Shown here: positions 37,277-63,212 of the stretch, one piece after another
Position numbering within the stretch: position 1 is the first letter of the stretch
Layout: every line of letters starts with the position of its first letter
Virus record (IMG/VR): IMGVR_UViG_3300029955_000023
DNA from: an uncultured virus (IMG/VR IMGVR_UViG_3300029955_000023)
Lineage: Duplodnaviria > Heunggongvirae > Uroviricota > Caudoviricetes
Length of the DNA: 64,000 nucleotides
Strand: one strand, 5' to 3'
Notes under the pieces: generated by a model
What the model was told of the DNA's origin: nothing
The model's input: only the letters and a program-made list of their open reading frames with translations
Database searches by the model: none
Program-made: the position numbers and the translations under genes

Positions 37277-37494
37277 CCAATATAGACGAAGCCTGCAAGA
37301 CGATGGATCGTGCGATTGCTGAGATCGCCGCCCTGCGCGCCAAGAATGAGGTTCTGCGGAAGGCGCTTGAATGCATCCTGCCGTACTTGCCTAAATCGAT
37401 GGCCAAGGACGACGGCCCCAACGCATTTTCCGGGCACGTCAAGGCTGCTGATACTGTCCGCGCCGCTCTCTCCACAACCAAGGAGCCGAAATGA
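37273..37494 (+). CDS. Hypothetical protein
   Basis: AAGGAG RBS; ends RAALSTTKEPK. Confidence 0.6.
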   Translation: MTNIDEACKTMDRAIAEIAALRAKNEVLRKALECILPYLPKSMAKDDGPNAFSGHVKAADTVRAALSTTKEPK

Positions 37495-37592
37495 GCGAAG
37501 CGCATGAGAAGCTGGCTGAGGAGCCCATCGAGCACCCGCTAAAAGAGATCGATACGCAGATTTATGTGTAACCCACCGCCCAGGAGAAAATA

Positions 37593-37940
37593 ATGAAAAT
37601 TCTACAATTCGAGACGGTTGCCGCCCAGGGCGAGCTTACGATCACGAAGTTGAAGAGAGCCCCAAATAACATCGGAATCCGCGTTGAGCCCGTTGATGGA
37701 AAACTGATCGTCGGCCATTCCGAAACGGGCCACCATCATGTCGTTGACGCCGAATGCGCGACGCTCACGCGGATCGATCAATTCACGGCGCTACTCGATG
37801 TGATCAAGATGACGCGGCTTGATCACCTGCGCGAGTGCGACACACATCCGAGCATCGCGTTACAGCCCGGAATGTACGAGTTCCGAACGGGTCGAGAGTT
37901 TGACCCTTTTGCTGCAACCATCCGCGCCAGCCAGGATTGA
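37593..37940 (+). CDS. His-rich small beta protein (partner of DUF6745-like), copy 1
   Basis: QGE...GHSETGHHH...H...I.L.PG.Y...REFDPF. Confidence 0.75.
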   Translation: MKILQFETVAAQGELTITKLKRAPNNIGIRVEPVDGKLIVGHSETGHHHVVDAECATLTRIDQFTALLDVIKMTRLDHLRECDTHPSIALQPGMYEFRTGREFDPFAATIRASQD

Positions 37941-37949
37941 GGAACTGCC

Positions 37950-39206
37950 ATGTTTGATATTGAGAAATATAAAGCAGCGTGCGTTTTTCCGGGTGAGATC
38001 GACGACTCTGCCGTGAAAATAGCGCTGGCGGGATATTGCGCCGCGCTCAAAATCGAGCGCGAGATTGTTAGAATCGAGAGAGGTTGGAAACTATCTGACT
38101 ATCCTGATCTCCAACGAACGATTGTGGAAATCGCCCGTGCCGCCCGTGACGCTCGTGACGCTCGTGACGCCCTTGCCGCCAGTGACGCCCGTGCCGCCCG
38201 TGACGCTCGTGACGCTCGTGACGCCCTTGCCGCCAGTGACGCCCGTGCCGCCCTTGCCGCCCGTGACGCCAGTGACGCCAGTGCCGCCAGTGACGCTCGT
38301 GACGCCCTTGCCGCCAGTGACGCCCGTGCCACCCGTGACGCTCGTGACGCCCGTGCCGCCCTTGCCGCCCGTGACGCTCGTGCCGCCCTTGCCGCCCGTG
38401 ACGCCAGTGCCGCCAGTGACGCTCGTGCCGCCCGTGACGCCAGTGACGCTCGTGCCGCCCGTGACGCTCGTGACGCCCGTGACGCTCGTGACGCCCTTGC
38501 CGCCCGTGCCGCCCGTGACGCCAGTGACGCTCGTGACGCCAGTGCCGCCCTACATCGTTTCGCGAAATGGTGCATCGCGCGTCAATATTGGTGGGATTGG
38601 GATTTATCGTTGATAAGCGAAATAAACGCCGGGGCTCATCAAATAAAAGAAAATCGCGTTATTGCGTGGTCTGATCCTATCTATGACGCTTTCTTGTCAG
38701 GGGCGTCTTTTCTATTTTGGACAGACAAGACGCTATATTGGGTTGCAAAACCGGATATTAAAACCGAAATTGTCAACGGCTCGCGACGTCTACATTGCGA
38801 GGACGGCCCCGCCGCTGATTTTGACAGTGAACCATTGTATTTTTGGCATGGAAACCTCGTTCCGAAACATTGGATCGAGGCCAAGAATGATCTGACCGCC
38901 GATGAGATATTCAAGGAAGACAACGCCGAGATCCGACGCGCTGGTTGCGAAATCATCGGATGGGATCGCGTGCTGTCTGGCATTGACGCGAAAATAGTTG
39001 ACACGGACGGAGACCCAATGATCGGCACGTTGTATCGAGGTCAAATACCCGGCGCGGTCGAATGCGGGTTCTTGAAAGTCTTGTGCGGGACAGGTCGTGA
39101 GTTCGTCATACCGGTATCGCCCGAGATTAATACCGCGATCAAAGCGCAAGCGTGGGTGCAAAATGTTTCCTTTGAGAAGTGGATGCGTCCGGAGGTTCGC
39201 GGATGA
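37950..39206 (+). CDS. DUF6745-like protein with tripeptide repeat tract, copy 1
   Basis: RLHCEDGPA...YFWHG..VP...NAEIRR...IG..R motifs; A-R/S/L-D/A repeats. Confidence 0.7.
38133..38546 (+). repeat. 46 x 9-bp coding minisatellite
   Basis: Units GCCCGTGAC, GCTCGTGAC, GCCAGTGAC, GCCCTTGCC and GCCCGTGCC. Confidence 0.9.
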
Positions 39207-40149: not shown

Positions 40150-40330
40150 CCATCAACACAAGCACGGAAGCGGTGAAGGCGGTTTCCATATTGGTGCGTA
40201 TGAGCGACCCAACCCCCAAGGAGCCGAAATGAGCGACGCGCATGAGAAGCTGGCTGAGGAGCCCATCGAGCACCCGCTAAAAGAGATCGATACGCAGATT
40301 TATGTGTAACCCACCGCCCAGGAGAAAATA

Positions 40331-40678
40331 ATGAAAATTCTACAATTCGAGACGGTTGCCGCCCAGGGCGAGCTTACGATCACGAAGTTGAAGAGAGCCC
40401 CAAATAACATCGGAATCCGCGTTGAGCCCGTTGATGGAAAACTGATCGTCGGCCATTCCGAAACGGGCCACCATCATGTCGTTGACGCCGAATGCGCGAC
40501 GCTCACGCGGATCGATCAATTCACGGCGCTACTCGATGTGATCAAGATGACGCGGCTTGATCACCTGCGCGAGTGCGACACACATCCGAGCATCGCGTTA
40601 CAGCCCGGAATGTACGAGTTCCGAACGGGTCGAGAGTTTGACCCTTTTGCTGCAACCATCCGCGCCAGCCAGGATTGA
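40331..40678 (+). CDS. His-rich small beta protein, copy 2
   Basis: Protein identical to 37593-37940. Confidence 0.75.
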   Translation: MKILQFETVAAQGELTITKLKRAPNNIGIRVEPVDGKLIVGHSETGHHHVVDAECATLTRIDQFTALLDVIKMTRLDHLRECDTHPSIALQPGMYEFRTGREFDPFAATIRASQD

Positions 40679-40687
40679 GGAACTGCC

Positions 40688-41944
40688 ATGTTTGATATTG
40701 AGAAATATAAAGCAGCGTGCGTTTTTCCGGGTGAGATCGACGACTCTGCCGTGAAAATAGCGCTGGCGGGATATTGCGCCGCGCTCAAAATCGAGCGCGA
40801 GATTGTTAGAATCGAGAGAGGTTGGAAACTATCTGACTATCCTGATCTCCAACGAACGATTGTGGAAATCGCCCGTGCCGCCCGTGACGCTCGTGACGCT
40901 CGTGACGCCCTTGCCGCCAGTGACGCCCGTGCCGCCCGTGACGCTCGTGACGCTCGTGACGCCCTTGCCGCCAGTGACGCCCGTGCCGCCCTTGCCGCCC
41001 GTGACGCCAGTGACGCCAGTGCCGCCAGTGACGCTCGTGACGCCCTTGCCGCCAGTGACGCCCGTGCCACCCGTGACGCTCGTGACGCCCGTGCCGCCCT
41101 TGCCGCCCGTGACGCTCGTGCCGCCCTTGCCGCCCGTGACGCCAGTGCCGCCAGTGACGCTCGTGCCGCCCGTGACGCCAGTGACGCTCGTGCCGCCCGT
41201 GACGCTCGTGACGCCCGTGACGCTCGTGACGCCCTTGCCGCCCGTGCCGCCCGTGACGCCAGTGACGCTCGTGACGCCAGTGCCGCCCTACATCGTTTCG
41301 CGAAATGGTGCATCGCGCGTCAATATTGGTGGGATTGGGATTTATCGTTGATAAGCGAAATAAACGCCGGGGCTCATCAAATAAAAGAAAATCGCGTTAT
41401 TGCGTGGTCTGATCCTATCTATGACGCTTTCTTGTCAGGGGCGTCTTTTCTATTTTGGACAGACAAGACGCTATATTGGGTTGCAAAACCGGATATTAAA
41501 ACCGAAATTGTCAACGGCTCGCGACGTCTACATTGCGAGGACGGCCCCGCCGCTGATTTTGACAGTGAACCATTGTATTTTTGGCATGGAAACCTCGTTC
41601 CGAAACATTGGATCGAGGCCAAGAATGATCTGACCGCCGATGAGATATTCAAGGAAGACAACGCCGAGATCCGACGCGCTGGTTGCGAAATCATCGGATG
41701 GGATCGCGTGCTGTCTGGCATTGACGCGAAAATAGTTGACACGGACGGAGACCCAATGATCGGCACGTTGTATCGAGGTCAAATACCCGGCGCGGTCGAA
41801 TGCGGGTTCTTGAAAGTCTTGTGCGGGACAGGTCGTGAGTTCGTCATACCGGTATCGCCCGAGATTAATACCGCGATCAAAGCGCAAGCGTGGGTGCAAA
41901 ATGTTTCCTTTGAGAAGTGGATGCGCCCGGAGGTTCGCGGATGA
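40688..41944 (+). CDS. DUF6745-like repeat protein, copy 2
   Basis: Protein identical to 37950-39206. Confidence 0.7.
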
Positions 41945-51667: not shown

Positions 51668-51816
51668 TTAGGTTTCTCGTGAGACCTGAGGGAATGTTGC
51701 GCGCGACCTGACTCGTGCCCAATGGGCTTGCCTTTGAACTCGACGCGCTGGGGCTTGCGCGGCTTGGGCGGCGGTCGGACGGCTTGATGGGCCGGGCTGG
51801 CGGGCGCGTCGGTCAT
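51664..51816 (-). CDS. Small basic hypothetical protein
   Basis: MTDAPASPAH...; ATGA overlaps on both sides. Confidence 0.45.
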   Translation of the reverse strand: MTDAPASPAHQAVRPPPKPRKPQRVEFKGKPIGHESGRAQHSLRSHEKPK

Positions 51817-54800
51817 TGGCCGACCCCGAGCTTCGCCATTTTTTGCCGCGTCGCGTCGGCCATGATCTGTGGATATTTCATGAAAAGCACCCCGCGCGCC
51901 GCCTCGCGGCTGTGTTCGACGATGGCCTTGACCGCATCGACGCGGACGCCAACGGGCCATTGACGCCAATCCGGTGAACGCACGAACACGTCGAGGCGCT
52001 GTTTCGCCATCCGGCCGGCGATGCGCGCGAAGTCATCATACTGCTGGTCTGTCAATTGCACATTTCGGATGGTTCGATCAACGGGGGCTATCCCGATCCC
52101 AAGTTGCGCGAGCGATATGTTCACCGGGTCTTGGCTCATCCGCTGTTCGTAAATCGCGGTGGCCCCGGCGGCGATCAGCGCATCGCGCGACGGAATCGGC
52201 TGGCCCCAAATGTCGAGACGCGGAAACAGTTCTTCCGACATGCCGGGAGTTTTGGCGCGGATCGAGTCCATGACCGTGCGGGCCTGCCGAGAGTATGGGT
52301 CGCTTGCGCGCGCCATCTGCGCCATGCCGACGCTATACGGCACGAAAGACGATGCGAAATTCTGGATATAACGCTCGCCATAGCGGCCTGGGTCTTCAAC
52401 GGCCTGGATCAGTTCGGCCGGCCCGCGCATGAACGACTCGTCCAGCACGTTTTGCGTGACCGCGTGCTGCATCAGCGCGGCGGCCTGCAGCATGTCGCCG
52501 GTCGACGCCGTGTGCGCCACGTCGTACAGATCGGCTGACATGCCGAGCAGCATCCCGAGCGGCCCGAGCCGGTTCATCGCATACCAAGTGTCTCCGATCC
52601 GAACGGAATGCGGCTGGTTTCCGGCCATGCGCCACATCGCGGCCTTGTTGCGATCCATCGGGCCAGAGCCGCTCACGTAGCCACTGGCGGCGAGCGAGCC
52701 GAAGCCAATCGACAGCGCCGTGCCGACGATCATGCGGGCCTGCGCCATGTCCTGCGCGGCGACGCCGTTGCGGCCCATCAGGTCCGCGCGGATTTCCGAC
52801 GACAGCAGGCCGGCGGGCGTCCGCTGCACGATGGACTGGTCGATGATATTCGCCGCGATGTGGACGAACGGGTCGATAAACTTGAGGATCGGCGTCTCGC
52901 CGAGGCCGGGCAGATTCGGAGCCCAATTGGTCAGTTTCGATAGGTGCTCGACGAACTTGCCGGCAGGCCCCATGAGCGTGAGGTCCGTCGCCCCCTTCGT
53001 CGAGGCCGACATGATGTCATCGGGCGTGTTCAATCGCAATTGCGCGATCTTCGCCGCGTCGCCTTCGGCCTGCCGGTAGATCAGCGCCGATTTCTCGATG
53101 CTGTAATTCATGGCTCGAAAAAAGGTGTGGATAGATGCGATGGCGCGGCTCGGCGCGCGCGCAAGCTGCCCGATCGGGATCACGCCCCCTCGAACCCGGA
53201 CGTCGAAGATAGCGCCCATCGGCGAATACATCGGCGCGGCGGTGCGCTCGCCGGCCGGCGTCGCCTCAAGCACCTTGCCTATGGCGAGCGCGCCGTCGAG
53301 CACTCCACGAAACGCGCCGAAGATCGCCGCCTTGGCGTCCGCGCGCGTCGCGCCCTCGTTCAGCATCTTGCCGGCCAGCGGGAGCGCCTGCTCCGGCTGA
53401 TAGGGGAGGGCACGCACCTTGTCTTGGCCGGGAAGCCGCCCGGTCAGGCCGGTGCGGAAAGCGTCGGCCGCCGCTGTGACCGCCGGGATATAGCCAGACG
53501 CCGCGCCGCGTAGTCTGGCCGCCACCTCGCCGAAGCGGACTACGTTCGAAGTGTCGCGACCCATTGGGCCGCGCAGCGCGCCCAGCGCGGCGGCTGTGGT
53601 GGTTTCGAGCAAGCCCTTCTGCATCGACAGGATCATGTTGCCGATCACGTAGGTTGTATGCGTCGCCGGGCCGGAGATCAGCCCGTTGATCCAGTATTCC
53701 AGCAACATGCGACCGAACGAATGCTTCGCGGTCGCGTCGGTCAGATAGGCGATGGCTTCCGGCGTCTCGTAGGCCGCCAACAGCTTCATCTCCTGCGTCT
53801 TTTGGTAGAGCGTGCGGCCGGTCGCCGCGAGCATCACCTTGTCGATATCGCCCTGCATCATGCGGAAGATGTTGAGCGCGCGGCCCGCCTCCGCCGTCGC
53901 GCCCATGATCGACTTAAGCACCATGTCGAGCCGGGCCTGTTCGGTCGCGAACGCCAGCACGCCTTCCGGCGACTCATCCTTGAGCCGCGAGATGCGCCCT
54001 ACCTCGTTGGCTTGGTCGGTCAATAGCTCCTTGAGCGCCACGATCTGCTCGGCGTTCATCGCTCGCCCGCGCACCCAGCCATCGACCAAATCGGCCGCGC
54101 CAAACTTACCCATCGCCGCGGCTAGTTCCTGCGTTTGCGCCCACGTCGTCGGCGCGCGGCGGTCGCCGATGAAGTCGCCATTCGCCTCGGAGCGCGCCTT
54201 GATCGCCGCCCACACGTCGTCGGCGACGTTGATGTTGGCGCGCTTGAAATTGCCCGCCTTGTCTACGTAGGGGGATTCTCCGTCCCCGATGAGCCTGACG
54301 GGCCGGGGGGCGAGGGGGGCATCCCTAAGAGGGTCGCTAGATTCGGGTCGTCCGCTGGCGGAGCCTCCGGCGGTGGGCTTGCCGACTTCTGCCGGAGCTG
54401 CATTTCCGCCTGCGCGCTCCTGGCCGCCTGCGCCGCCCATGACGCCGCCGCCGGACTGAGCCCCGGCTTGGCCGCCACCGCCGACCATTTCTGGTAATCC
54501 GACGTCGCCGCGTCCAACTTCTCCTGCGGCGTCGCCTCCTGGTCCTGCTGCTGCGGCTTCGACTTCTTGGACGGCTTGGGCGATTTCATCGGCGATCTCC
54601 GTCGGCGGTTGAGCGTCGTCAAAATGCGGCCGCTCGGCCTCGACCCGGTCGGCCGCGCCGCTCGCGTGTTCGTGCGGCGTCTGCTCGGCGGCTTCCGCGT
54701 GGAGGTCGTCGAGGCCGCGCCCCGGTTCCGCGTGCGGCGCGATCACCGTAGCGCGATCTTTCGTCTCGTGCATGTATTCGAACACGCTGCGTAGCGCCGG

Positions 54801-57800
54801 ACTGATTTCTACGTTCAGGCCCTCCACCCGATCGTAGAGAGGGAGCATCCAGTCGCGGAACATCTTGAACACGCCGTCGAGCGCGCGCGTCGGCGCGGTT
54901 CCCTCGTAAAGCCAGCGCATGTAGCCGTTGGCGAACTTCTCGTGCGCCTTGGTCGAGATCACGTTGTCCGCGCCAACGCCTGTTTCGCGCTTGGCAACCT
55001 CCCACATATCGCGCATCCGTTGCGGCGCTTCAGGATGTGCGGCGTCGCGCTTGAGCATCTCGAAGAAATCGTGGCCGAGTTCGTGGATCGCCGTCGTCGC
55101 GTTGGCAATTTTCATCAACGTGATGATCGACCGCTGGCCGAGCCGCAAGAGGATGCGGCCGAACTGGCTCTGCTCAAGCTTGCGCTCGTCCTCATCTGGC
55201 TTCTCGGCTTCAATGGCCTGCGGAGCCTTTGACGGGTCTTTCGGCTTCAAGTCCTCCGTCAGCGCGGCCAGCTTCGCAGCCGCTTCGGCGTATTCCGCTT
55301 GGCGCGGCCATGTCGCCGCCGCTGCCTTCGACAGCGTGTCGTATTCTTTCTGGTTCCCCGCGATCTGCGCCTCGACGCGATCCGCCTGCGCCTTGATCTC
55401 CGCGAGCAACCCGGTGAACTTCGCCATCAGGCCGACCGGATCAGTCTCGCTGTTGATGATGAACTCGTTCGGGCTGGCGTAAAGGCTATTTCCCTCAAGC
55501 TGTAGCTTGCCGACGGTGATGATGTTTTCCTCTTGCGACGCGCCGCCGTAGGAATAGCTGCGCCTCAATTCGATGCTGGCCGGGAAGCCGCCAATCTCGC
55601 CGAAGTTAAGTGCGCGGGCGCTATGGCTCAATTGCGGAGCAATCCGCAGCACGCCGTCACGCACCTTCTCGCCGGCTGCTTTCCGGTCCGTGAGCGTGGT
55701 CCCGTCGCTCAACGTGATCTTGAACTTGTCGCCGCGAATGTCCTGCACGCGCTCGGAATCCTCTTTCGCAGGCGCAAGGTTCCGCTTCAATTCTTCAATG
55801 TGAGATTGCAGGCCCTTCACCTGCCACGTCGCACGCTGCTTGGTCTGGTCGAAACCGCGCTTTTGCGCCGTCAGTTGCCGCACCTGCCGCGTCAGTTCGG
55901 CGTGCTGCATGATGCGCGGGTCGCCGGAGGCCGCCGCCTTGAGCATCTCGGCCTCGGGCAACGGGTTGTCGATGTCCTCGGCGACGCGGACGCCCTTCGA
56001 TCCGCTGTTGACCTGCCCGATGAACTTCGCCTTGCGCTCTAAAAGCTGCCAGCGCGTCGCGTCCAGCGACCGTTCGGTGATGTAGCGCAGGATATGGACC
56101 TCTTTGTTGAGGTTGCCTTGGCGCAAAATGCGCCCATCGCGCTGTTCGATCTCCGCCGGCTTATGTGTCGGGTCCATGTGGTGCATGGCGATCAGGCGCT
56201 TCTGCGCGTTGGTGCCGACGCCCATCTTTTCCGTCGAGCCGATCAGCACGCGCGTCACGCCGTCATTCATGCGCGCGAATAGGGCGCGCTTCTTCTCATC
56301 GCTGTCGGCGTCGTGGATGAACTCGATCTCCTTGCGCGGGATACCTTCGGCCACAAGCCGCTGGCGCATGTCCTCGTAAAGATTGATCGGTGGCGGCTTC
56401 CCGGCCGCGCTCTCGTCCTTCGGGACCACGGTGCGCAGCGCCTTCTGCTCGGCCTTGGTCAGATCGCCCCACGAACGCTGCCAGTCGCGGTCCTCAATGT
56501 TCTTCGTCGATCCCGCCGCGCGCGCCCAATCCATGCGCTCGTCGCCGGTCACGGCGTCCCAAGTCGCGGCGTAGCCTTCATCGCTCTCGGCGACCCTGGC
56601 CTTGGGCGTGCCGCGATCCATGAACACCATCTGCGAGCGCGCGTTCGGATCGTCCTTGTAGCGGTCGTATATGTCTTTGATGTTCTTGACCGCGAGCGCG
56701 ATTTTGCCGTTCGGGTTGAACTCCATCGGCTTCGGCACCGCAAAGCCCATGATGTCGCCGTCGCGCAGCAAGCGCCCGTCGAGCGCGGCCTTGTTCCCGG
56801 CCCCCATGAGCGACAGCGTGTTGTCCTCGCCCTTCTCGCGCCGCAGGCCCTTGATCTCGGCGAGGCGCTCCACGATGCGCCGCACGGCGGCTTCCTCGTG
56901 CTCGGAAAGCTGCGCGGTGTGAACTTCGATCCCCGGCTTGCCGTCGCGCGTCATCAACGCCGGGCGTGGCAGGTTCAACTGCTCGGCCGATTGCGAGTCG
57001 GCGATCTCGGAATAGAGCGAGATCAACTCGGGAATGTTGACGAACTTCGAGAACGACGTGACGTCTTTGATCGACCTCCCGTCGGGAGCCATCTCGGGCT
57101 GCGTCACCACCTTGCCGAAGGTGTTGCCCCAAGCGTCGAACTTATCCAACCCGCGCTCTTTGAGCTTGTCGAGTTGCAGATAGCGCATCATGGTCCAAAG
57201 CTCGGCCATGCTGTTCGACATCGGCGTGCCGGTCGCGAAGATCGCCGAGCGCCCAGGCTTGCGCTGCTCGAGGTAGCGAATCTTCATAAACAAGTCCTCC
57301 GACCGCTGCGAGGCGGCGGAGGAAAGCCCGCGAATGTTCGAGTAGCGCGTCGGGAAGGCAAGGTTTTTGAACAGGTGCGCCTCATCGACGATCACTTGGT
57401 CAATGCCCGATTCCTCGAATGTCGTTCCCTCGTCCTTCACTTCGTCGTTCAACAGTTTTTGCAGTCGGGCGTTCATCTTCTCCATCGCGCTTTCAAGCTG
57501 CTTGACGGTGCGCGACTTCTTTGTTTCCCCCGCCGCACGATCCGCCGCCTGCTGCGCTTTAAGCGCTTCGCGATATTCCGCAAGCTGGTCTTGGATGAAT
57601 TGGCCTTGCGTTTCGCTCGATACGCCGATGCGTCCGAACGCGCTGTGCGTGAAGATCACGGCGTCCCAATCGTTCGAGGCGGTTTTGGCTACAAACGCGC
57701 GGCGCGCGTCGGGCGACATCTCGTCCTTGTTCGCCACTAGGATGTTGGCGTCAGGATAGGCCTGAATGAACTCGGTCGAGAATTGGTCGAGCATGTGGTT

Positions 57801-60800
57801 CGGGACGGCCACGCAAGGCTTTTGAATAAGTCCCAGCCGCTTTTGCTCCATCGCCGCCGCTATCATCGTTACGGTCTTACCGCTCCCGACCGCGTGCGCG
57901 AGCAGCGTGTTGCCCTTCTGCAAGATGCGCCAGACCGCGTTCTTTCGGTGCGCGCGGTCGGTGAACATCGGATTGAGGCCCGGTAGCGTCAGGTGCGAGC
58001 CGTCGGCCTTCCATTGCACCAGATCGTTCATGGTCCGATTGTAGACGCCCTCAAGCAATTCGCCGCGCTGCTGGTCCGCGAACGCCCAAGGCTCCACGCC
58101 CTTGTCAGGGTCGCCGGAGAACATCGAGCGGATTTCCTCGATCTTCGCCGCGACTTCTTCTGTCTTGGCTTGGTTCACAACGCGCGTGTCGCGGTCGATC
58201 TGGTCATAGACCGTGATCTGATTGTTGTTGAACGCCGCCTTCATGATCGACTTGAGAGTGACGTCAGATCGACCGACGCCCCATTTCGTCTCTGCCGATG
58301 GCTTGAAGCGGTCAGCCTCGACGCGCCATTCCTTGTTGACCGGCAGCAATTCGACCTTCGGATTGACCGCGCCCAATTCCTTGAGGAAGTCGGCGTGGAC
58401 CTGCGCGGGTATCCACGGTGCGCCCAACTGCGCCGTGATGTCTACGGCTGTCAGCAGGGGCGGCTGCACCTTTTCGAGCGCCGCGACGTTGCGCGCATAG
58501 GTCGGATCGGTCGCGGCGATGGCGCGCGCATCTTCCAACTTCTTGATGACGGTTCCCGACAGGTATTGATCGGCGGATTCCCATTCGCGCCCGTTCGGGT
58601 TCTGGTAGATCAGGTCGCCCAAGCGCGCGACAACCTCGTCCTCGTCCTTCGCTCCCATAAGCTTACCGATCTCTTGCAGATCGACCTTGCCTTGGGTGTC
58701 AAGCACGGACGCCAGCGCGTCGGCGGAACTGTTGATCTTGCGGTCCACCGGCGCGGCGATGACGTCCTTGGTCTGGATCGCGGCGCGCGTCGCCGTATCC
58801 TTCTCAGGATCGTAATTCTCAATGGACGCAACCTTGTAGACGTCGGGGTCGTCGCGGAATTCCTCGAAGTTCGGATGCTTGATGCGAACCTGCGGGTTGC
58901 CGTCAGCGTCCAGCTTCTTCGAGACGATCTTAACCTCTTTGCGGATCGGGCCGTGTTTCGCCACGAACTCGTCGTAGGCGTCGCGCAGCGCCTCGCGCAG
59001 CTTCTCGGCGTCGCCGCCCTTGCCGAGTTGCGCCTTGAGCAGATCGTTGTAGATGTCGCGTATGCCGATCAGCTTCGACACGCGCGCAACGGTCTCCGGC
59101 GACATTTTCTGCGGCTCGCCAATGCCCTGAACGCGCCGGTAAATCTGGCCGTCTTTGAGAGCGTATCCGCCTTCTTTGACGTCCATTCCCATGTCGTCGC
59201 GATTGATGGTCGGCGGCGGCGGCGTGGCGCGCTTGGTGAAAGCGCCGGGCGGCATTTTTCCCGCCGCCTCGCCGATCTTGGCGCGCAAATCGTCCGGCTC
59301 GCCCATCAGCACGGGCTCGTTCGCTCCATACATCGAGCCTTTCAGCCGCATTTCGCCGAGCATCATGTCGGGGCGGTCGGCGAAATACTCGTTGATGTGC
59401 GTCGGGCCTTCCGGCGTCTGGATTTCCTTCGTGTCCATCCAGTCCGCGCTCGCGAACGGAGCCTCGCCCGGAATCTTCTTGCGCAGGAAGATAATGTCGG
59501 TCGTGACTTCTGTTCCAGCGTTGCCGGCGAATGCGCCCTCCTTGCCGCCTGGCAAGCGGATCGCGCCCACAAGATCGGCGTCTTTCGCCAGCCGCGCGCG
59601 CACGTCCGAATTGGCCTTGTCCATCGTCCCCTTGGACGTGATGAACGCCACCACGCCGCCAGGGCGAACCTTGTCGAGCGACTTCACAAAAAAGAAATCG
59701 TGGATCAGGTGAGTGCCGTGCGGCTTCTCCGTCAGCGAATAGCTGCCGAACGGCACGTTGGAGATCGCGAGATCGTAATAGTTCGACGGGCGCTTGAGCG
59801 TCTCGAAGCCCTGATTGTTGACCTCCGCGCCGCCGTATAGCGCCTTGGTGATGCGGGCGGACAGCGGGTCAAGTTCAACAGCGGTCCATGACGTGCGCGG
59901 CGCGACGCTATCGGGAATGAGACCGATGAAATGGCCGATGCCGGCCGACGGCTCGATGGCCTCGCCGCCCTTGTAGCCGAGCGCCGTCAGCGCATCCCAC
60001 ATGCCCTTGACGACTTCCGGCGACGTATAGTGCGCGTTCTTCGTCGAAGCGCGCGCGGCGGCGTATTCCTCGTTGGTGACGAGAGCGCGAAACGCCTTGC
60101 GCTCCGCCTTGAACTCATCCTGCCGGTCGGCATTGAACATCTTTTCAGAGAACGCGCCCCAGCCGGTGTATTTGACCAGCTTCGCCTTTTCCTCTTGCGT
60201 CGCCTCGCGCGCCTCGTCCTCGATCAGCTTGAGCGTCTTGATCGCGTCGATGTTCGCCCGAATCTTCGCCTTCGGGCCGCCCTCGCCGATGGCGTCGGCG
60301 TCGGTGATGCGATAGTTCGCGCGCGACCGCTCCGCGATCTTTTGGCGCGCTTCTACTCGTCCTGCGGCTGCGGCGTCGGTTGATGGATCAGGTCGTGCCT
60401 GATCAGTTCCGTCAGAGCTTCTTGGTGGCCCGCTAACACTTTCTCCCTCGCCAACTGGTCCAAGTCCCTCGTCTCGTCGAGCTTCTTGAACATTTCGTGG
60501 TTCATCGTCTCCGCCGCCGACTCCCCCACCGAGGTCAGTCGTGCTTGGAGTTTGCCGGATTGGCTTAGGCTCCGGTGCAGGCGTGGGTGATTCGCTTTCA
60601 GGAAGCTCTCGTGCTCCGCCGCGAACCGTCTCTCCATCGCGTCCATAATCGACACTCCATTCCGGCGCGCTCGCCCAGGCGTCATCGAACAACTTGAGCG
60701 CCCGATCCATCACGTCGCGGTAGATCGCGGTATCAGCCGGGTCGACCGATTCTTTCAGCCGCTTCACCGGCTGTCGCATCTCGTGCGCCTCGTCCATAAC

Positions 60801-63212
60801 CCGCATCACGGGCTCAGGGACAAGCTGCAACTCCGCCGACATGCCGTCGCCAAGGCCTATTTGCAAGTGGATGGCGCGATAACCTTCCTTGCCCGGACGA
60901 ATAAAGTCCTCGGCCTCGATTATTGCGCCCGTTGCCTTGATTTTGTCGAGAATGGCGTCTAGGTTTTGAACGTGGTCGACAACGATACGCGCGCCGAGAT
61001 AGTCGGATATCGTGTTCGGGTTCCGCCTCTTCGCCGACAATTTGAGTTCGAGGCCCGGCAAGTCCTTTGCCCGCGCCCCATACACGCGCGCGCCGTCGAC
61101 GCCCTTGACTAGCTCGTTAAGCCTGTCGAGAAGCTTCGGCTTGTTTTCCTCGGCGGCGGCCAGCAGCGCCTTGTAGTCGCTTGATCCTTGAATTATCTTC
61201 TTACCGGAGGCTTGGTCGATGTCCCCCAACGAAAAATCGGTGAAGCGCGTAATCTCTGGCCCCTCGAAGATCGACGGCGGCATCTGCCGCATGGTCGAGC
61301 TTTCCGACGGCTCCGCGCGCTGCGAATCCTGGATCAAAGGCTCGGGCTGGGAGGAAGGCGGCTGCTTCCCTTCCGAGTTCATGTTCGCGCCGCCGGTCTC
61401 CTCGGAGCTTGCCTCGCGGATGGGCTGTCCCACTTCCGAGCTTTCCAAGGTCTGAACCGGCTCGGGCTCGGGTTCCGGCTCCGGCGCTTCCGCGATCTGC
61501 TCCTTTGCGATCGCATCGACGTCCGGCTCCGGGGATGCCGCGCGCCGTTGCGCCTCCGCCTCGGCCTCCGCCGGCACGACGGGCAACTCAGGCGGCAGCT
61601 CGACCGACGCGACCACTTCCGGCCCGGTCTTGGCGCGCTTTCCGCCCACGCGGCGCACCTTGCCGTCCTCGCCTCTGATATCCGCGCCCTCGCGGCGATA
61701 GATTTCCTCCGGCGTTCCGATCTTGCCCTCGAACGCCTCCGAGCGCGCGGCCATGCGCGACGCCACGATGTGCCCCAGCGCCTCGGCTTCATCCGGCGGG
61801 CGTCCGGCGCTGATGAACTGGCGCTTGGCGTCGTCAACGATGGCCTGCAGGTCGCCGCCGCCGGCCGCCGCCTCGCCCTCCGGCGCGACCATCGCCCCGC
61901 CGACCTTCTCCGCCGCGCGCCGGTGCGCCGCGCTGATCTCTGGCGCGATGTCCGCAATCTTGGCTTCTACGGCGGTAACTTGCGCGTCGAGCGCGCCGTC
62001 GTGCGGCAATTCGTCGGCGGCCTTCACGAGCGCGTCGCGCTGCGCGGTCAACGCCTCATATTCGCGGAACGCCTCGACGTGCGCGTCGCGCGCGAGCGGA
62101 GCCGGGTTCGGCAGTTCAGCCGTCCCGACGGTCGCTTGTTCCTCGCGCTGCGCGGCCTGCGCGGCCTGCTCCACGGCGGGCGGAGATTCCTCGTCGCCCA
62201 TGAACGTCTTTTCGGTGCGAGCCGGGCCGCCCACGCCAAGCGCCCAGGCGTCGGTCAGCGTGGGGGGCCGCTCGCCATAAACGTAGTTTGCGTCGACGTC
62301 GGCCAGCGTGTGTTCTGGTCCGGCTGGCGGTTCGGTCACGGCTCCGTAAATGCCGCCCACGTCGTAATCCTGTCGCCCCCGGAACCGCTGACCTTGTTCC
62401 TCGAATGGCGGTTCTTGGGGTTTCAGCCCCATCACGTCATGTGCGGTAGTTCGCCCGAGCAAGCGCGGAATGATGCCCTCTATGGCCTCTCCGAAGCGAT
62501 TTGGCTTGTTGAACACCAGACCGAAGCCGGTCGAGATCGCGACCTTGTTCCAATCGACGTCGCCCTCGGCCGCCTCTTGCCCCAACTCCATGCCGCCCAT
62601 CAACGCGCCGCTGAATAGCCGCTGCGTCGCCGGATTGACCATTAGACGTTGGAGCGCGGTCGAGTTCTCCGGCAGTTTCGCCGCCGCTGAAAAACCGCCC
62701 GGTTTCATCGTCAGCGCGAACGGAGCCATGCCGCCGAGAAATGTCGCGTAGGGGTGCTGCTCTTGGTCGAGGCGCTGCTGGCGCTCGTCTTGGCCTATCG
62801 ACTCCACCCACGAATCCGGCAGCTTCGACAGGCCGTAATCCTGAGCCTTCTCAGCCGCGAACGATCCGCCGAACCCGCCGATCAAGCCGCCAGCAACGCC
62901 GCCGACCAATTCGGAAATGCCGGTTTCGCCGAGGCCTGGGACCAGAGCGCCCGCCGCCGCGCCGTAGGCCGCGCCCGCTCCTGCGCCAGCGAGACCGCCC
63001 GCCGCCGGGAGCGCGCCGCGCGCCGCGCCTCGCGTGAACGCGCCGGACGTTGATGAGCCTGTCGGGTCGACGGTCTGGCCATTCAGCAGTTTCGCGAACG
63101 GGTCGTTCTCGTCATCGGCAGGCGGCGGCGCGGCCTGATAGCGCAGCGGCTGGTCGCCGCCGCCTAAGACGCCCGCAAACGGATCGGCAACTTGACCATC
63201 GGCATCGGCCAT
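51813..63212 (-). CDS. DarB-like giant polyvalent virion protein (RelA/SpoT + N6-adenine MTase + SNF2 helicase + HExxH zincin-like + C-terminal LPD-like)
   Basis: RelA/SpoT ~61180-60660 (RAK..., SDYLGARIV, KEGYRAIH, ELQL); MTase ~60320-59250 (EPSAGIG, SNVPF); helicase ~57990-55900 (HAVGSGKT, DEAH, TGTP, QRDGRILRQGN); HELGH near 55080. Confidence 0.9.
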   Translation of the reverse strand: MADADGQVADPFAGVLGGGDQPLRYQAAPPPADDENDPFAKLLNGQTVDPTGSSTSGAFTRGAARGALPAAGGLAGAGAGAAYGAAAGALVPGLGETGISELVGGVAGGLIGGFGGSFAAEKAQDYGLSKLPDSWVESIGQDERQQRLDQEQHPYATFLGGMAPFALTMKPGGFSAAAKLPENSTALQRLMVNPATQRLFSGALMGGMELGQEAAEGDVDWNKVAISTGFGLVFNKPNRFGEAIEGIIPRLLGRTTAHDVMGLKPQEPPFEEQGQRFRGRQDYDVGGIYGAVTEPPAGPEHTLADVDANYVYGERPPTLTDAWALGVGGPARTEKTFMGDEESPPAVEQAAQAAQREEQATVGTAELPNPAPLARDAHVEAFREYEALTAQRDALVKAADELPHDGALDAQVTAVEAKIADIAPEISAAHRRAAEKVGGAMVAPEGEAAAGGGDLQAIVDDAKRQFISAGRPPDEAEALGHIVASRMAARSEAFEGKIGTPEEIYRREGADIRGEDGKVRRVGGKRAKTGPEVVASVELPPELPVVPAEAEAEAQRRAASPEPDVDAIAKEQIAEAPEPEPEPEPVQTLESSEVGQPIREASSEETGGANMNSEGKQPPSSQPEPLIQDSQRAEPSESSTMRQMPPSIFEGPEITRFTDFSLGDIDQASGKKIIQGSSDYKALLAAAEENKPKLLDRLNELVKGVDGARVYGARAKDLPGLELKLSAKRRNPNTISDYLGARIVVDHVQNLDAILDKIKATGAIIEAEDFIRPGKEGYRAIHLQIGLGDGMSAELQLVPEPVMRVMDEAHEMRQPVKRLKESVDPADTAIYRDVMDRALKLFDDAWASAPEWSVDYGRDGETVRGGARELPESESPTPAPEPKPIRQTPSTTDLGGGVGGGDDEPRNVQEARRDEGLGPVGEGESVSGPPRSSDGTDQARPDPSTDAAAAGRVEARQKIAERSRANYRITDADAIGEGGPKAKIRANIDAIKTLKLIEDEAREATQEEKAKLVKYTGWGAFSEKMFNADRQDEFKAERKAFRALVTNEEYAAARASTKNAHYTSPEVVKGMWDALTALGYKGGEAIEPSAGIGHFIGLIPDSVAPRTSWTAVELDPLSARITKALYGGAEVNNQGFETLKRPSNYYDLAISNVPFGSYSLTEKPHGTHLIHDFFFVKSLDKVRPGGVVAFITSKGTMDKANSDVRARLAKDADLVGAIRLPGGKEGAFAGNAGTEVTTDIIFLRKKIPGEAPFASADWMDTKEIQTPEGPTHINEYFADRPDMMLGEMRLKGSMYGANEPVLMGEPDDLRAKIGEAAGKMPPGAFTKRATPPPPTINRDDMGMDVKEGGYALKDGQIYRRVQGIGEPQKMSPETVARVSKLIGIRDIYNDLLKAQLGKGGDAEKLREALRDAYDEFVAKHGPIRKEVKIVSKKLDADGNPQVRIKHPNFEEFRDDPDVYKVASIENYDPEKDTATRAAIQTKDVIAAPVDRKINSSADALASVLDTQGKVDLQEIGKLMGAKDEDEVVARLGDLIYQNPNGREWESADQYLSGTVIKKLEDARAIAATDPTYARNVAALEKVQPPLLTAVDITAQLGAPWIPAQVHADFLKELGAVNPKVELLPVNKEWRVEADRFKPSAETKWGVGRSDVTLKSIMKAAFNNNQITVYDQIDRDTRVVNQAKTEEVAAKIEEIRSMFSGDPDKGVEPWAFADQQRGELLEGVYNRTMNDLVQWKADGSHLTLPGLNPMFTDRAHRKNAVWRILQKGNTLLAHAVGSGKTVTMIAAAMEQKRLGLIQKPCVAVPNHMLDQFSTEFIQAYPDANILVANKDEMSPDARRAFVAKTASNDWDAVIFTHSAFGRIGVSSETQGQFIQDQLAEYREALKAQQAADRAAGETKKSRTVKQLESAMEKMNARLQKLLNDEVKDEGTTFEESGIDQVIVDEAHLFKNLAFPTRYSNIRGLSSAASQRSEDLFMKIRYLEQRKPGRSAIFATGTPMSNSMAELWTMMRYLQLDKLKERGLDKFDAWGNTFGKVVTQPEMAPDGRSIKDVTSFSKFVNIPELISLYSEIADSQSAEQLNLPRPALMTRDGKPGIEVHTAQLSEHEEAAVRRIVERLAEIKGLRREKGEDNTLSLMGAGNKAALDGRLLRDGDIMGFAVPKPMEFNPNGKIALAVKNIKDIYDRYKDDPNARSQMVFMDRGTPKARVAESDEGYAATWDAVTGDERMDWARAAGSTKNIEDRDWQRSWGDLTKAEQKALRTVVPKDESAAGKPPPINLYEDMRQRLVAEGIPRKEIEFIHDADSDEKKRALFARMNDGVTRVLIGSTEKMGVGTNAQKRLIAMHHMDPTHKPAEIEQRDGRILRQGNLNKEVHILRYITERSLDATRWQLLERKAKFIGQVNSGSKGVRVAEDIDNPLPEAEMLKAAASGDPRIMQHAELTRQVRQLTAQKRGFDQTKQRATWQVKGLQSHIEELKRNLAPAKEDSERVQDIRGDKFKITLSDGTTLTDRKAAGEKVRDGVLRIAPQLSHSARALNFGEIGGFPASIELRRSYSYGGASQEENIITVGKLQLEGNSLYASPNEFIINSETDPVGLMAKFTGLLAEIKAQADRVEAQIAGNQKEYDTLSKAAAATWPRQAEYAEAAAKLAALTEDLKPKDPSKAPQAIEAEKPDEDERKLEQSQFGRILLRLGQRSIITLMKIANATTAIHELGHDFFEMLKRDAAHPEAPQRMRDMWEVAKRETGVGADNVISTKAHEKFANGYMRWLYEGTAPTRALDGVFKMFRDWMLPLYDRVEGLNVEISPALRSVFEYMHETKDRATVIAPHAEPGRGLDDLHAEAAEQTPHEHASGAADRVEAERPHFDDAQPPTEIADEIAQAVQEVEAAAAGPGGDAAGEVGRGDVGLPEMVGGGGQAGAQSGGGVMGGAGGQERAGGNAAPAEVGKPTAGGSASGRPESSDPLRDAPLAPRPVRLIGDGESPYVDKAGNFKRANINVADDVWAAIKARSEANGDFIGDRRAPTTWAQTQELAAAMGKFGAADLVDGWVRGRAMNAEQIVALKELLTDQANEVGRISRLKDESPEGVLAFATEQARLDMVLKSIMGATAEAGRALNIFRMMQGDIDKVMLAATGRTLYQKTQEMKLLAAYETPEAIAYLTDATAKHSFGRMLLEYWINGLISGPATHTTYVIGNMILSMQKGLLETTTAAALGALRGPMGRDTSNVVRFGEVAARLRGAASGYIPAVTAAADAFRTGLTGRLPGQDKVRALPYQPEQALPLAGKMLNEGATRADAKAAIFGAFRGVLDGALAIGKVLEATPAGERTAAPMYSPMGAIFDVRVRGGVIPIGQLARAPSRAIASIHTFFRAMNYSIEKSALIYRQAEGDAAKIAQLRLNTPDDIMSASTKGATDLTLMGPAGKFVEHLSKLTNWAPNLPGLGETPILKFIDPFVHIAANIIDQSIVQRTPAGLLSSEIRADLMGRNGVAAQDMAQARMIVGTALSIGFGSLAASGYVSGSGPMDRNKAAMWRMAGNQPHSVRIGDTWYAMNRLGPLGMLLGMSADLYDVAHTASTGDMLQAAALMQHAVTQNVLDESFMRGPAELIQAVEDPGRYGERYIQNFASSFVPYSVGMAQMARASDPYSRQARTVMDSIRAKTPGMSEELFPRLDIWGQPIPSRDALIAAGATAIYEQRMSQDPVNISLAQLGIGIAPVDRTIRNVQLTDQQYDDFARIAGRMAKQRLDVFVRSPDWRQWPVGVRVDAVKAIVEHSREAARGVLFMKYPQIMADATRQKMAKLGVGQ
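54263..54589 (-). CDS. Candidate nested gene (alternate frame, 108 aa)
   Basis: GGAG 7 nt before ATG 54589; spans a Gly-rich linker of the giant protein. Confidence 0.45.
   Translation of the reverse strand: MKSPKPSKKSKPQQQDQEATPQEKLDAATSDYQKWSAVAAKPGLSPAAASWAAQAARSAQAEMQLRQKSASPPPEAPPADDPNLATLLGMPPSPPGPSGSSGTENPPT
60353..60646 (-). CDS. Nested TnpV-like gene (alternate frame, 97 aa)
   Basis: GGAG 8 nt before the ATG; H..FLK.NHP.L...L..SGKL...L..V.E.A...E.IRHDLI resembles the TnpV family. Confidence 0.65.
   Translation of the reverse strand: MDAMERRFAAEHESFLKANHPRLHRSLSQSGKLQARLTSVGESAAETMNHEMFKKLDETRDLDQLAREKVLAGHQEALTELIRHDLIHQPTPQPQDE
61219..61455 (+). CDS. Nested antisense gene (78 aa), candidate antitoxin of the RelA/SpoT domain
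   Basis: GGAGG at 61206-61210, ATG at 61219; globular-looking sequence while the host frame is Ser/Pro/Glu-rich. Confidence 0.6.
   Translation: MSPNEKSVKRVISGPSKIDGGICRMVELSDGSARCESWIKGSGWEEGGCFPSEFMFAPPVSSELASRMGCPTSELSKV

Follow-up and report, generated by a model that had tools for sequence, protein, structure and literature searches.

The window, the whole stretch of 64,000 nucleotides that we analyzed, covers most of a virus record of 66,309 bases that has repeated ends; the genome is therefore circular, with a length of ∼65.3 kb. It carries portal, major head, tail and internal virion genes, as a ∼65-kb podophage. Beyond the block of virion genes lies a giant gene on the minus strand (51813..63212), which encodes a DarB-like polyvalent protein of 3,799 amino acids and matches phrog_10089 (‘DarB-like antirestriction’) with an E value of 0. 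Its RelA/SpoT domain (Pfam RelA_SpoT, residues 714-797, 60822..61073) is followed by a helical domain, labelled LPD36-like by its description in PMC5512222 only, with an N6-adenine methyltransferase (together ∼residues 966-1330, 59223..60317), by a further helical domain (residues 1359-1486, 58755..59138, model pLDDT 94) that offers the predicted TnpV-binding surface described below, and by SNF2-type SF2 helicase/translocase domains (∼residues 1753-2366, 56115..57956), all on the minus strand. A SNF2-rel_dom match and an invariant N-x-P-F motif mark this host protein as an N6-adenine methyltransferase fused to a SNF2-type helicase. The host shares the LPD36-methyltransferase-SNF2 module, the RelA/SpoT domain and the late-gene position with the DarB-type proteins of Iyer et al. 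2017 (PMC5512222), where methyltransferase-SNF2 modules are described as belonging to proteins that are carried in together with invading DNA, and P1 DarB as shielding DNA from type I restriction. A Bcep22-like relative is virion-associated (PMC9144972). Judged by the position of its gene, the host giant may be packaged in the virion and guard DNA from restriction.

A second gene (60353..60646, minus strand) is fully contained in the open host frame (51813-63212, minus strand), at an offset of +1, between the RelA/SpoT and methyltransferase domains. The initial annotation had placed an out-of-frame gene at this point; its translation gives the quoted protein of 97 amino acids, and the GGAG Shine-Dalgarno site reported with it is found at 60655..60658 on the minus strand, 8 nt 5' of the ATG. 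The host frame over the nested gene is indeed the G/P/E-rich linker described there (G 17%, P 13%, E 10%). Over the overlap, the host-frame GC3 falls to 0.38, compared with 0.56-0.93 in all other 97-codon windows; at host codons 901-950, the host frame has a GC3 of 0.28 and the +1 frame one of 0.82. The same Met start, within two residues, is present in 5 of 6 close homologues (63-84% identity), and an alternative in-frame ATG at 60685 has no Shine-Dalgarno match. Contigs from two public runs, which may be the source data of the window itself, cross the overlap gap-free, and one RNA run (0.11 of words) covers 61208-61450 only, outside the nested gene. We regard the frame at 60353-60646 as almost certainly a real gene, whose product is likely translated as a separate protein.

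The resemblance of this protein to TnpV, which had been recognized by eye, was borne out by both profile and structure. Pfam TnpV (PF14198) matches it over profile positions 25-93 of 111 with an E value of 2.8e-6, a marginal result at 27.7 bits against a cut-off of 27. The AlphaFold2 model consists of four helices (pLDDT 93), and an ESM Atlas structure match to a 100% TnpV cluster has TM scores of 0.78/0.73 over 89 residues, both structures being predicted. By profile and structure the protein belongs with the TnpV of Tn4451/Tn4453-type mobilisable elements. However, the described TnpV copies are free-standing genes in Bacillota elements, whereas the present one is a phage gene nested in a DarB-like gene and is shorter at its N-terminus than the Tn4451/Tn4453-type copies; the Tn4451-like setting beside a serine recombinase is absent here, tnpV being nested in a phage late gene. 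TnpV has no solved relative by sequence, and when the model was searched by fold, neither PDB nor BFVD yielded a match at E≤0.001 (best VIA Z 7.1). The top BFVD row, Q8W6J4_2 (probability 0.99, TM 0.60), is probably orf33 of phage PBC5, which ends in the TnpV frame, an identification made from length alone. In the PBC5 record (L013, AF448724.1), a frame change relative to phage Atu_ph08, either an error or real, occurs at ∼3130, just before the TnpV-like start, and splits the giant in two. The N-terminal half of TnpV also shows a fold likeness to DUF1896 of Bacteroidota (PG0816, PDB 2apl; Z 6.5, rmsd 2.1 over 65 residues) that lies within the helical background and is a lead only, with no profile-profile match between DUF1896 and TnpV (hhalign, narrow 24-sequence profile). 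On a Chryseobacterium plasmid, a truncated DUF1896 gene (L187:2037-2273) stands directly upstream of a fragmented methyltransferase gene and is a possible positional analogue of TnpV; no DUF1896 gene holds that position in L186, L208, L209 or L210.

We gathered related loci for the likeness of their methyltransferase, without regard to TnpV. They comprise 11 viral loci, a larger viral set (best 80 of 177), a set of genome stretches (best 80 of 552, from a scan covering 16 of 64 parts) and 13 annotated records picked by hand. An iterated profile search was run over 27,675 open frames from 185 loci, which collapsed at 95% identity to 147. A TnpV-like frame is nested in the +1 frame upstream of the methyltransferase in 115 of these 147 distinct loci, a count inflated by sampling from best-match lists for the window's methyltransferase and including a few loci that end at a contig edge. 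The conservation in homologues that the initial annotation had named as a test was thus found, within this sample. In 6 further loci the TnpV-like frame is present and the host frame is interrupted before the methyltransferase, 9 loci are cut short upstream of the methyltransferase, and 17 gave no TnpV-like match at E<0.001 with the iterated profile; antisense or +2-nested TnpV was found in none of the 147. The starting profile, made without the sampled loci, detects 84 of the 115 nested frames, and with the Pfam TnpV profile a match at E≤0.5 was obtained for 69 of 76 representatives. Among the 17 misses, a short-class profile recovered 4 at E<0.003, and another 4 gave weak matches (E 0.016-0.21). 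TnpV-profile scans run directly on viral contigs returned an identical contig as the sole match.

Among the carriers are phages Itty13, LASTA, VvAW1, Gervaise, Mwe-JY07 and Atu_ph08, from whose records the nested gene is missing, an Enterococcus plasmid, an Alteromonas plasmid, and elements in Bacillota (ICEs), Verrucomicrobiota, Acidobacteriota and Synergistota. Because the domains upstream of the methyltransferase module vary among relatives, TnpV is linked to the methyltransferase-helicase module and not to RelA/SpoT; a tie to RelA/SpoT, which is not a constant neighbour, was considered and rejected. In phage 8P, in one plasmid each of Xanthomonas and Campylobacter, and in a viral contig (L016:3678, L022:3440, L025:3519, L173:6726), the +1 frame upstream of the methyltransferase holds a divergent class that matches TnpV-like profiles only weakly.

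In each of 200 pairs compared, conservation of the nested protein exceeds that of the host linker over the same bases (identity 0.59 vs 0.39); these pairs are non-independent and, having been chosen by shared words in the nested protein, biased upward. Substitutions in these pairs number 7169, 5482 and 10114 at nested codon positions 1, 2 and 3. A Shine-Dalgarno match precedes 49 of 83 nested starts, compared with 13% of 1,660 control draws, and a -1 slippery heptamer, the sole frameshifting signal searched for, occurs near the tnpV stop in none of 96 loci. The arrangement has the features of an embedded same-strand gene: both frames are open, the inner frame is under selection, and it has its own start signal. 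Since sequence change, codon bias and ribosome-binding sites all favour the nested frame, the host linker is the frame that was overprinted. Stand-alone TnpV genes contain 2-13 stops in the frame that the host would use; therefore read-through is not automatic, and an open host frame costs selection.

The extent of the host frame varies with lineage. In several Verrucomicrobiota and Acidobacteriota loci it opens just 120-180 codons ahead of the methyltransferase; in most phages it reaches 500 to >2,300 codons upstream and includes unrelated domains; and in Bacillota the distance from TnpV to the methyltransferase is up to 4 kb. We infer that tnpV and the methyltransferase-helicase gene may once have formed an adjacent two-gene cassette, and that the enzyme would later have been joined to upstream delivery domains by read-through of tnpV in another frame. 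This would be a large natural example of domain fusion via read-through of an intervening gene. In the case of Rz and Rz1, the Rz1 product works together with the Rz product. Rz1 is likewise a complete gene in another frame, within Rz (PMC9144972), but unlike that pair, the present one has the inner frame better conserved and spans phages, plasmids and ICEs.

Approached from TnpV, the association with DarB-like enzymes proposed in the initial annotation holds in part. TnpV matches were found in 39 of 101 clostridial genomes; when the best match was taken in each of 30 genomes, 9 were nested +1 in a long frame and 21 stood alone. Ten non-identical metagenome loci found by TnpV divide evenly, with 5 continuing into an LPD36-like start and 5 not. 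One clostridial genome has 12 TnpV genes, of which 2 are nested and 10 are not, and a serine recombinase lies near 4 of these 10 stand-alone genes (21 long ORFs scanned). In a quick midpoint-rooted tree (140 rows, 133 columns), a single branch inside the nested Bacillota sequences holds 24 of the 28 stand-alone copies (SH-aLRT 94), and this placement suggests that the stand-alone copies are derived. Three loci (L008, L133, L143) have a second TnpV at the point where the host frame ends. TnpV-bearing IMEs insert in the snf2 genes of ICEs, a preference called unexplained (PMC9815147), and the linkage described here bears on the question of why they choose this target. TnpV-like genes of the window's own clade with no methyltransferase behind them were also observed (L248:5958-6335, L249:2188-2487, L250:3164-3463); two of these, L249 and L250, retain a linker-like -1 frame, as if they were relics.

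We co-folded TnpV with host residues 958-1750, each with its own 100-row alignment and rows in matching order. The complex scored 0.65, compared with 0.19 for the best of three controls, and passed a mark that is attained by 116 of 157 solved pairs and by 2 of 215 mismatched ones, rates that are approximate here, where our own alignments were used. Contact agreement among runs was at least 42% and partner pLDDT at least 77. In the predicted complex, residues 2-7 and 45-75 of TnpV contact the host at residues 1359-1486, between the methyltransferase and the SNF2 motor; this interface is off the catalytic site and off RelA/SpoT, the latter lying outside the folded part of the host. The bound helical domain has no solved relative by sequence and gave no match in a fold search (best Z 6.0). 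Because neither TnpV nor the bound domain has a solved sequence relative, memory of a known complex is unlikely to explain the score.

The distribution of the two partners agrees with this model in part. A P1-like DarB has neither the bound domain nor the nested gene. Nine loci keep the bound domain with no TnpV-like gene detected in the available DNA (L024, L046, L117, L128, L142, L147, L184, L186, L190), and the short nested class misses ∼residues 58-74, much of the predicted interface (helices 3-4), while the host motif is retained. Covariation gave no clear independent support (of the 200 top-ranked pairs, 43 fell in the region where 30 were expected, from ∼38 effective sequences). A strict partnership between TnpV and the enzyme is countered by the 21 of 30 stand-alone clostridial genes and by giants without TnpV. 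The suggestion that TnpV is a partner of DarB-like enzymes is thus upheld by co-folding, as a prediction, and limited by the many clostridial copies that stand alone. We consider it probable, on the strength of the model, that TnpV binds the host enzyme.

What would such binding achieve? A separate protein, made from the same transcript and predicted to bind between two catalytic parts, would best fit a chaperone or inhibitor that acts before delivery. TnpV may hold the enzyme folded and idle within the producing cell and stay behind when the giant leaves by virion ejection or through a conjugation channel, so that the enzyme would modify incoming DNA in the new cell only. We give a probability of about 0.55 to this reading, in which a TnpV-family gene in the +1 frame makes a dedicated chaperone or inhibitor predicted to bind the helical domain; as to the role itself, the present data fit inhibitor and activator alike.

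The main rival, drawn by analogy with Ulx, makes TnpV a permanent subunit or loading factor that would travel with the enzyme and be needed for packaging or for activity in the new cell. We think this possible but doubtful. The same predicted binding would fit it, and in P1, as here, a DarB enzyme is accompanied by a linked small accessory gene, that of Ulx; Ulx, a virion head protein, aids DarB localisation (PMC9024508), so DarB-type enzymes can need small helpers. Yet the Ulx gene is downstream and separate, the P1-like DarB lacks the very domain that TnpV is predicted to bind, and TnpV has no profile similarity to the protein found at the Ulx position in a P1-like plasmid (hhalign probability 0.06%; a comparison with one protein, named by position and size). 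The nested gene is, moreover, retained in conjugative elements, which have no capsid. Directionality factors of the lambda Xis type have a winged-helix DNA-binding fold. For the TnpV of Tn4451 an Xis-like role has been postulated, and postulated only (PMC3158075), and with serine recombinases near 4 of 10 stand-alone genes in one genome, TnpV might be a DNA-binding factor for recombination or regulation whose presence at the locus is incidental. The model is a four-helix bundle, with no Xis structure among the fold matches listed; the net charge of the protein is -4 (family median -1); the location of its gene follows that of the methyltransferase gene in phages, plasmids and ICEs; and the stand-alone copies mostly branch within the nested Bacillota. 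Such a factor therefore seems improbable to us.

Two further readings concern the nested frame itself. A frameshift could fuse the N-terminal part of the host protein to TnpV, or TnpV to the methyltransferase, leaving no free protein, and the constant offset of +1 would suit this, as would the PBC5 record with its orf33 ending in the TnpV frame. The enrichment of ribosome-binding sites belonging to tnpV itself, the absence of slippery heptamers, the Bacillota genes lying kilobases upstream of the methyltransferase and the continuous host frame of the close relative Atu_ph08 make this very unlikely. Least probable of all, to the point of being negligible, is that the frame is a shadow or an assembly artefact: the Pfam score exceeds its cut-off by 0.7 bits and high-GC DNA is rich in open frames, but the GC3 pattern, the ribosome-binding site, the confidently modelled fold, the Pfam matches among representatives, the conservation of the nested protein, the gap-free contigs and the match to the TnpV cluster all argue against it. 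A wider and more speculative reading would make TnpV the hidden regulatory subunit of the main phage and conjugative antirestriction enzyme; the giants would carry several +1 nested partners, each guarding one domain like an internal immunity gene, and the mobilisable elements inserting into ICE snf2 genes would control the helper's enzyme through a captured stand-alone TnpV.

TnpV, DarB-like giants and embedded genes are each already known; their nested link appears to be new. In the mostly open literature searched, by titles and abstract openings, TnpV-DarB nesting or linkage is not described. The main text of PMC5512222, as distinct from its supplements, makes no mention of TnpV, DUF1896, Ulx or an overlap, and DarB-like genes or Ulx are treated without a nested gene in the portions of PMC9144972, PMC6630229, PMC11437467 and PMC9024508 covered here. 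The link offers a testable function for TnpV, a family that is common next to resistance genes and often wrongly labelled as a transposase, and the records of cultured phages overlook a conserved gene inside their largest protein. For the helper genes of P1, PMC9144972 notes that Bcep22-like phages have no known homologues; nested TnpV may explain the absence of these helpers from DarB-like phages, and work on DarB-like enzymes may need the TnpV partner.

Several other features were observed in the window and in related giants. The host gene contains a second candidate +1 nested gene (54263..54589, minus strand, 108 amino acids), with a GGAG site and no Pfam family, over a G/A-rich host linker. 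Three homologues with 68-85% identity share its Met start, and it resembles the N-terminal part of P0017 (E 1.7e-5, small set), a protein that ends in a TnpV-like domain. Two families of small +1 nested ORFs that are better conserved than the host frame occur in related giants, one at L012:5105, L108:6207 and L109:5550, which by eye is joined to TnpV-like domains in P0018 and P0031, and another at L010:3578 and L019:2004. Intein-like insertions, recognized by eye, lie in the SNF2 Walker B region at L108:10479-10985 and from L115:10881 onward, with their DUF559 endonuclease (E 3.4e-14) in the +1 frame; out-of-frame intein endonucleases are already in print. Finally, positions 37478-39206 and 40216-41944 of the window, 2,738 nt apart, are a near-identical duplication that may be real or a product of assembly; the duplicated unit comprises a 115-amino-acid gene and a 418-amino-acid gene with 9-nt repeats and DUF6745, with 1,613 of 1,614 bases identical.
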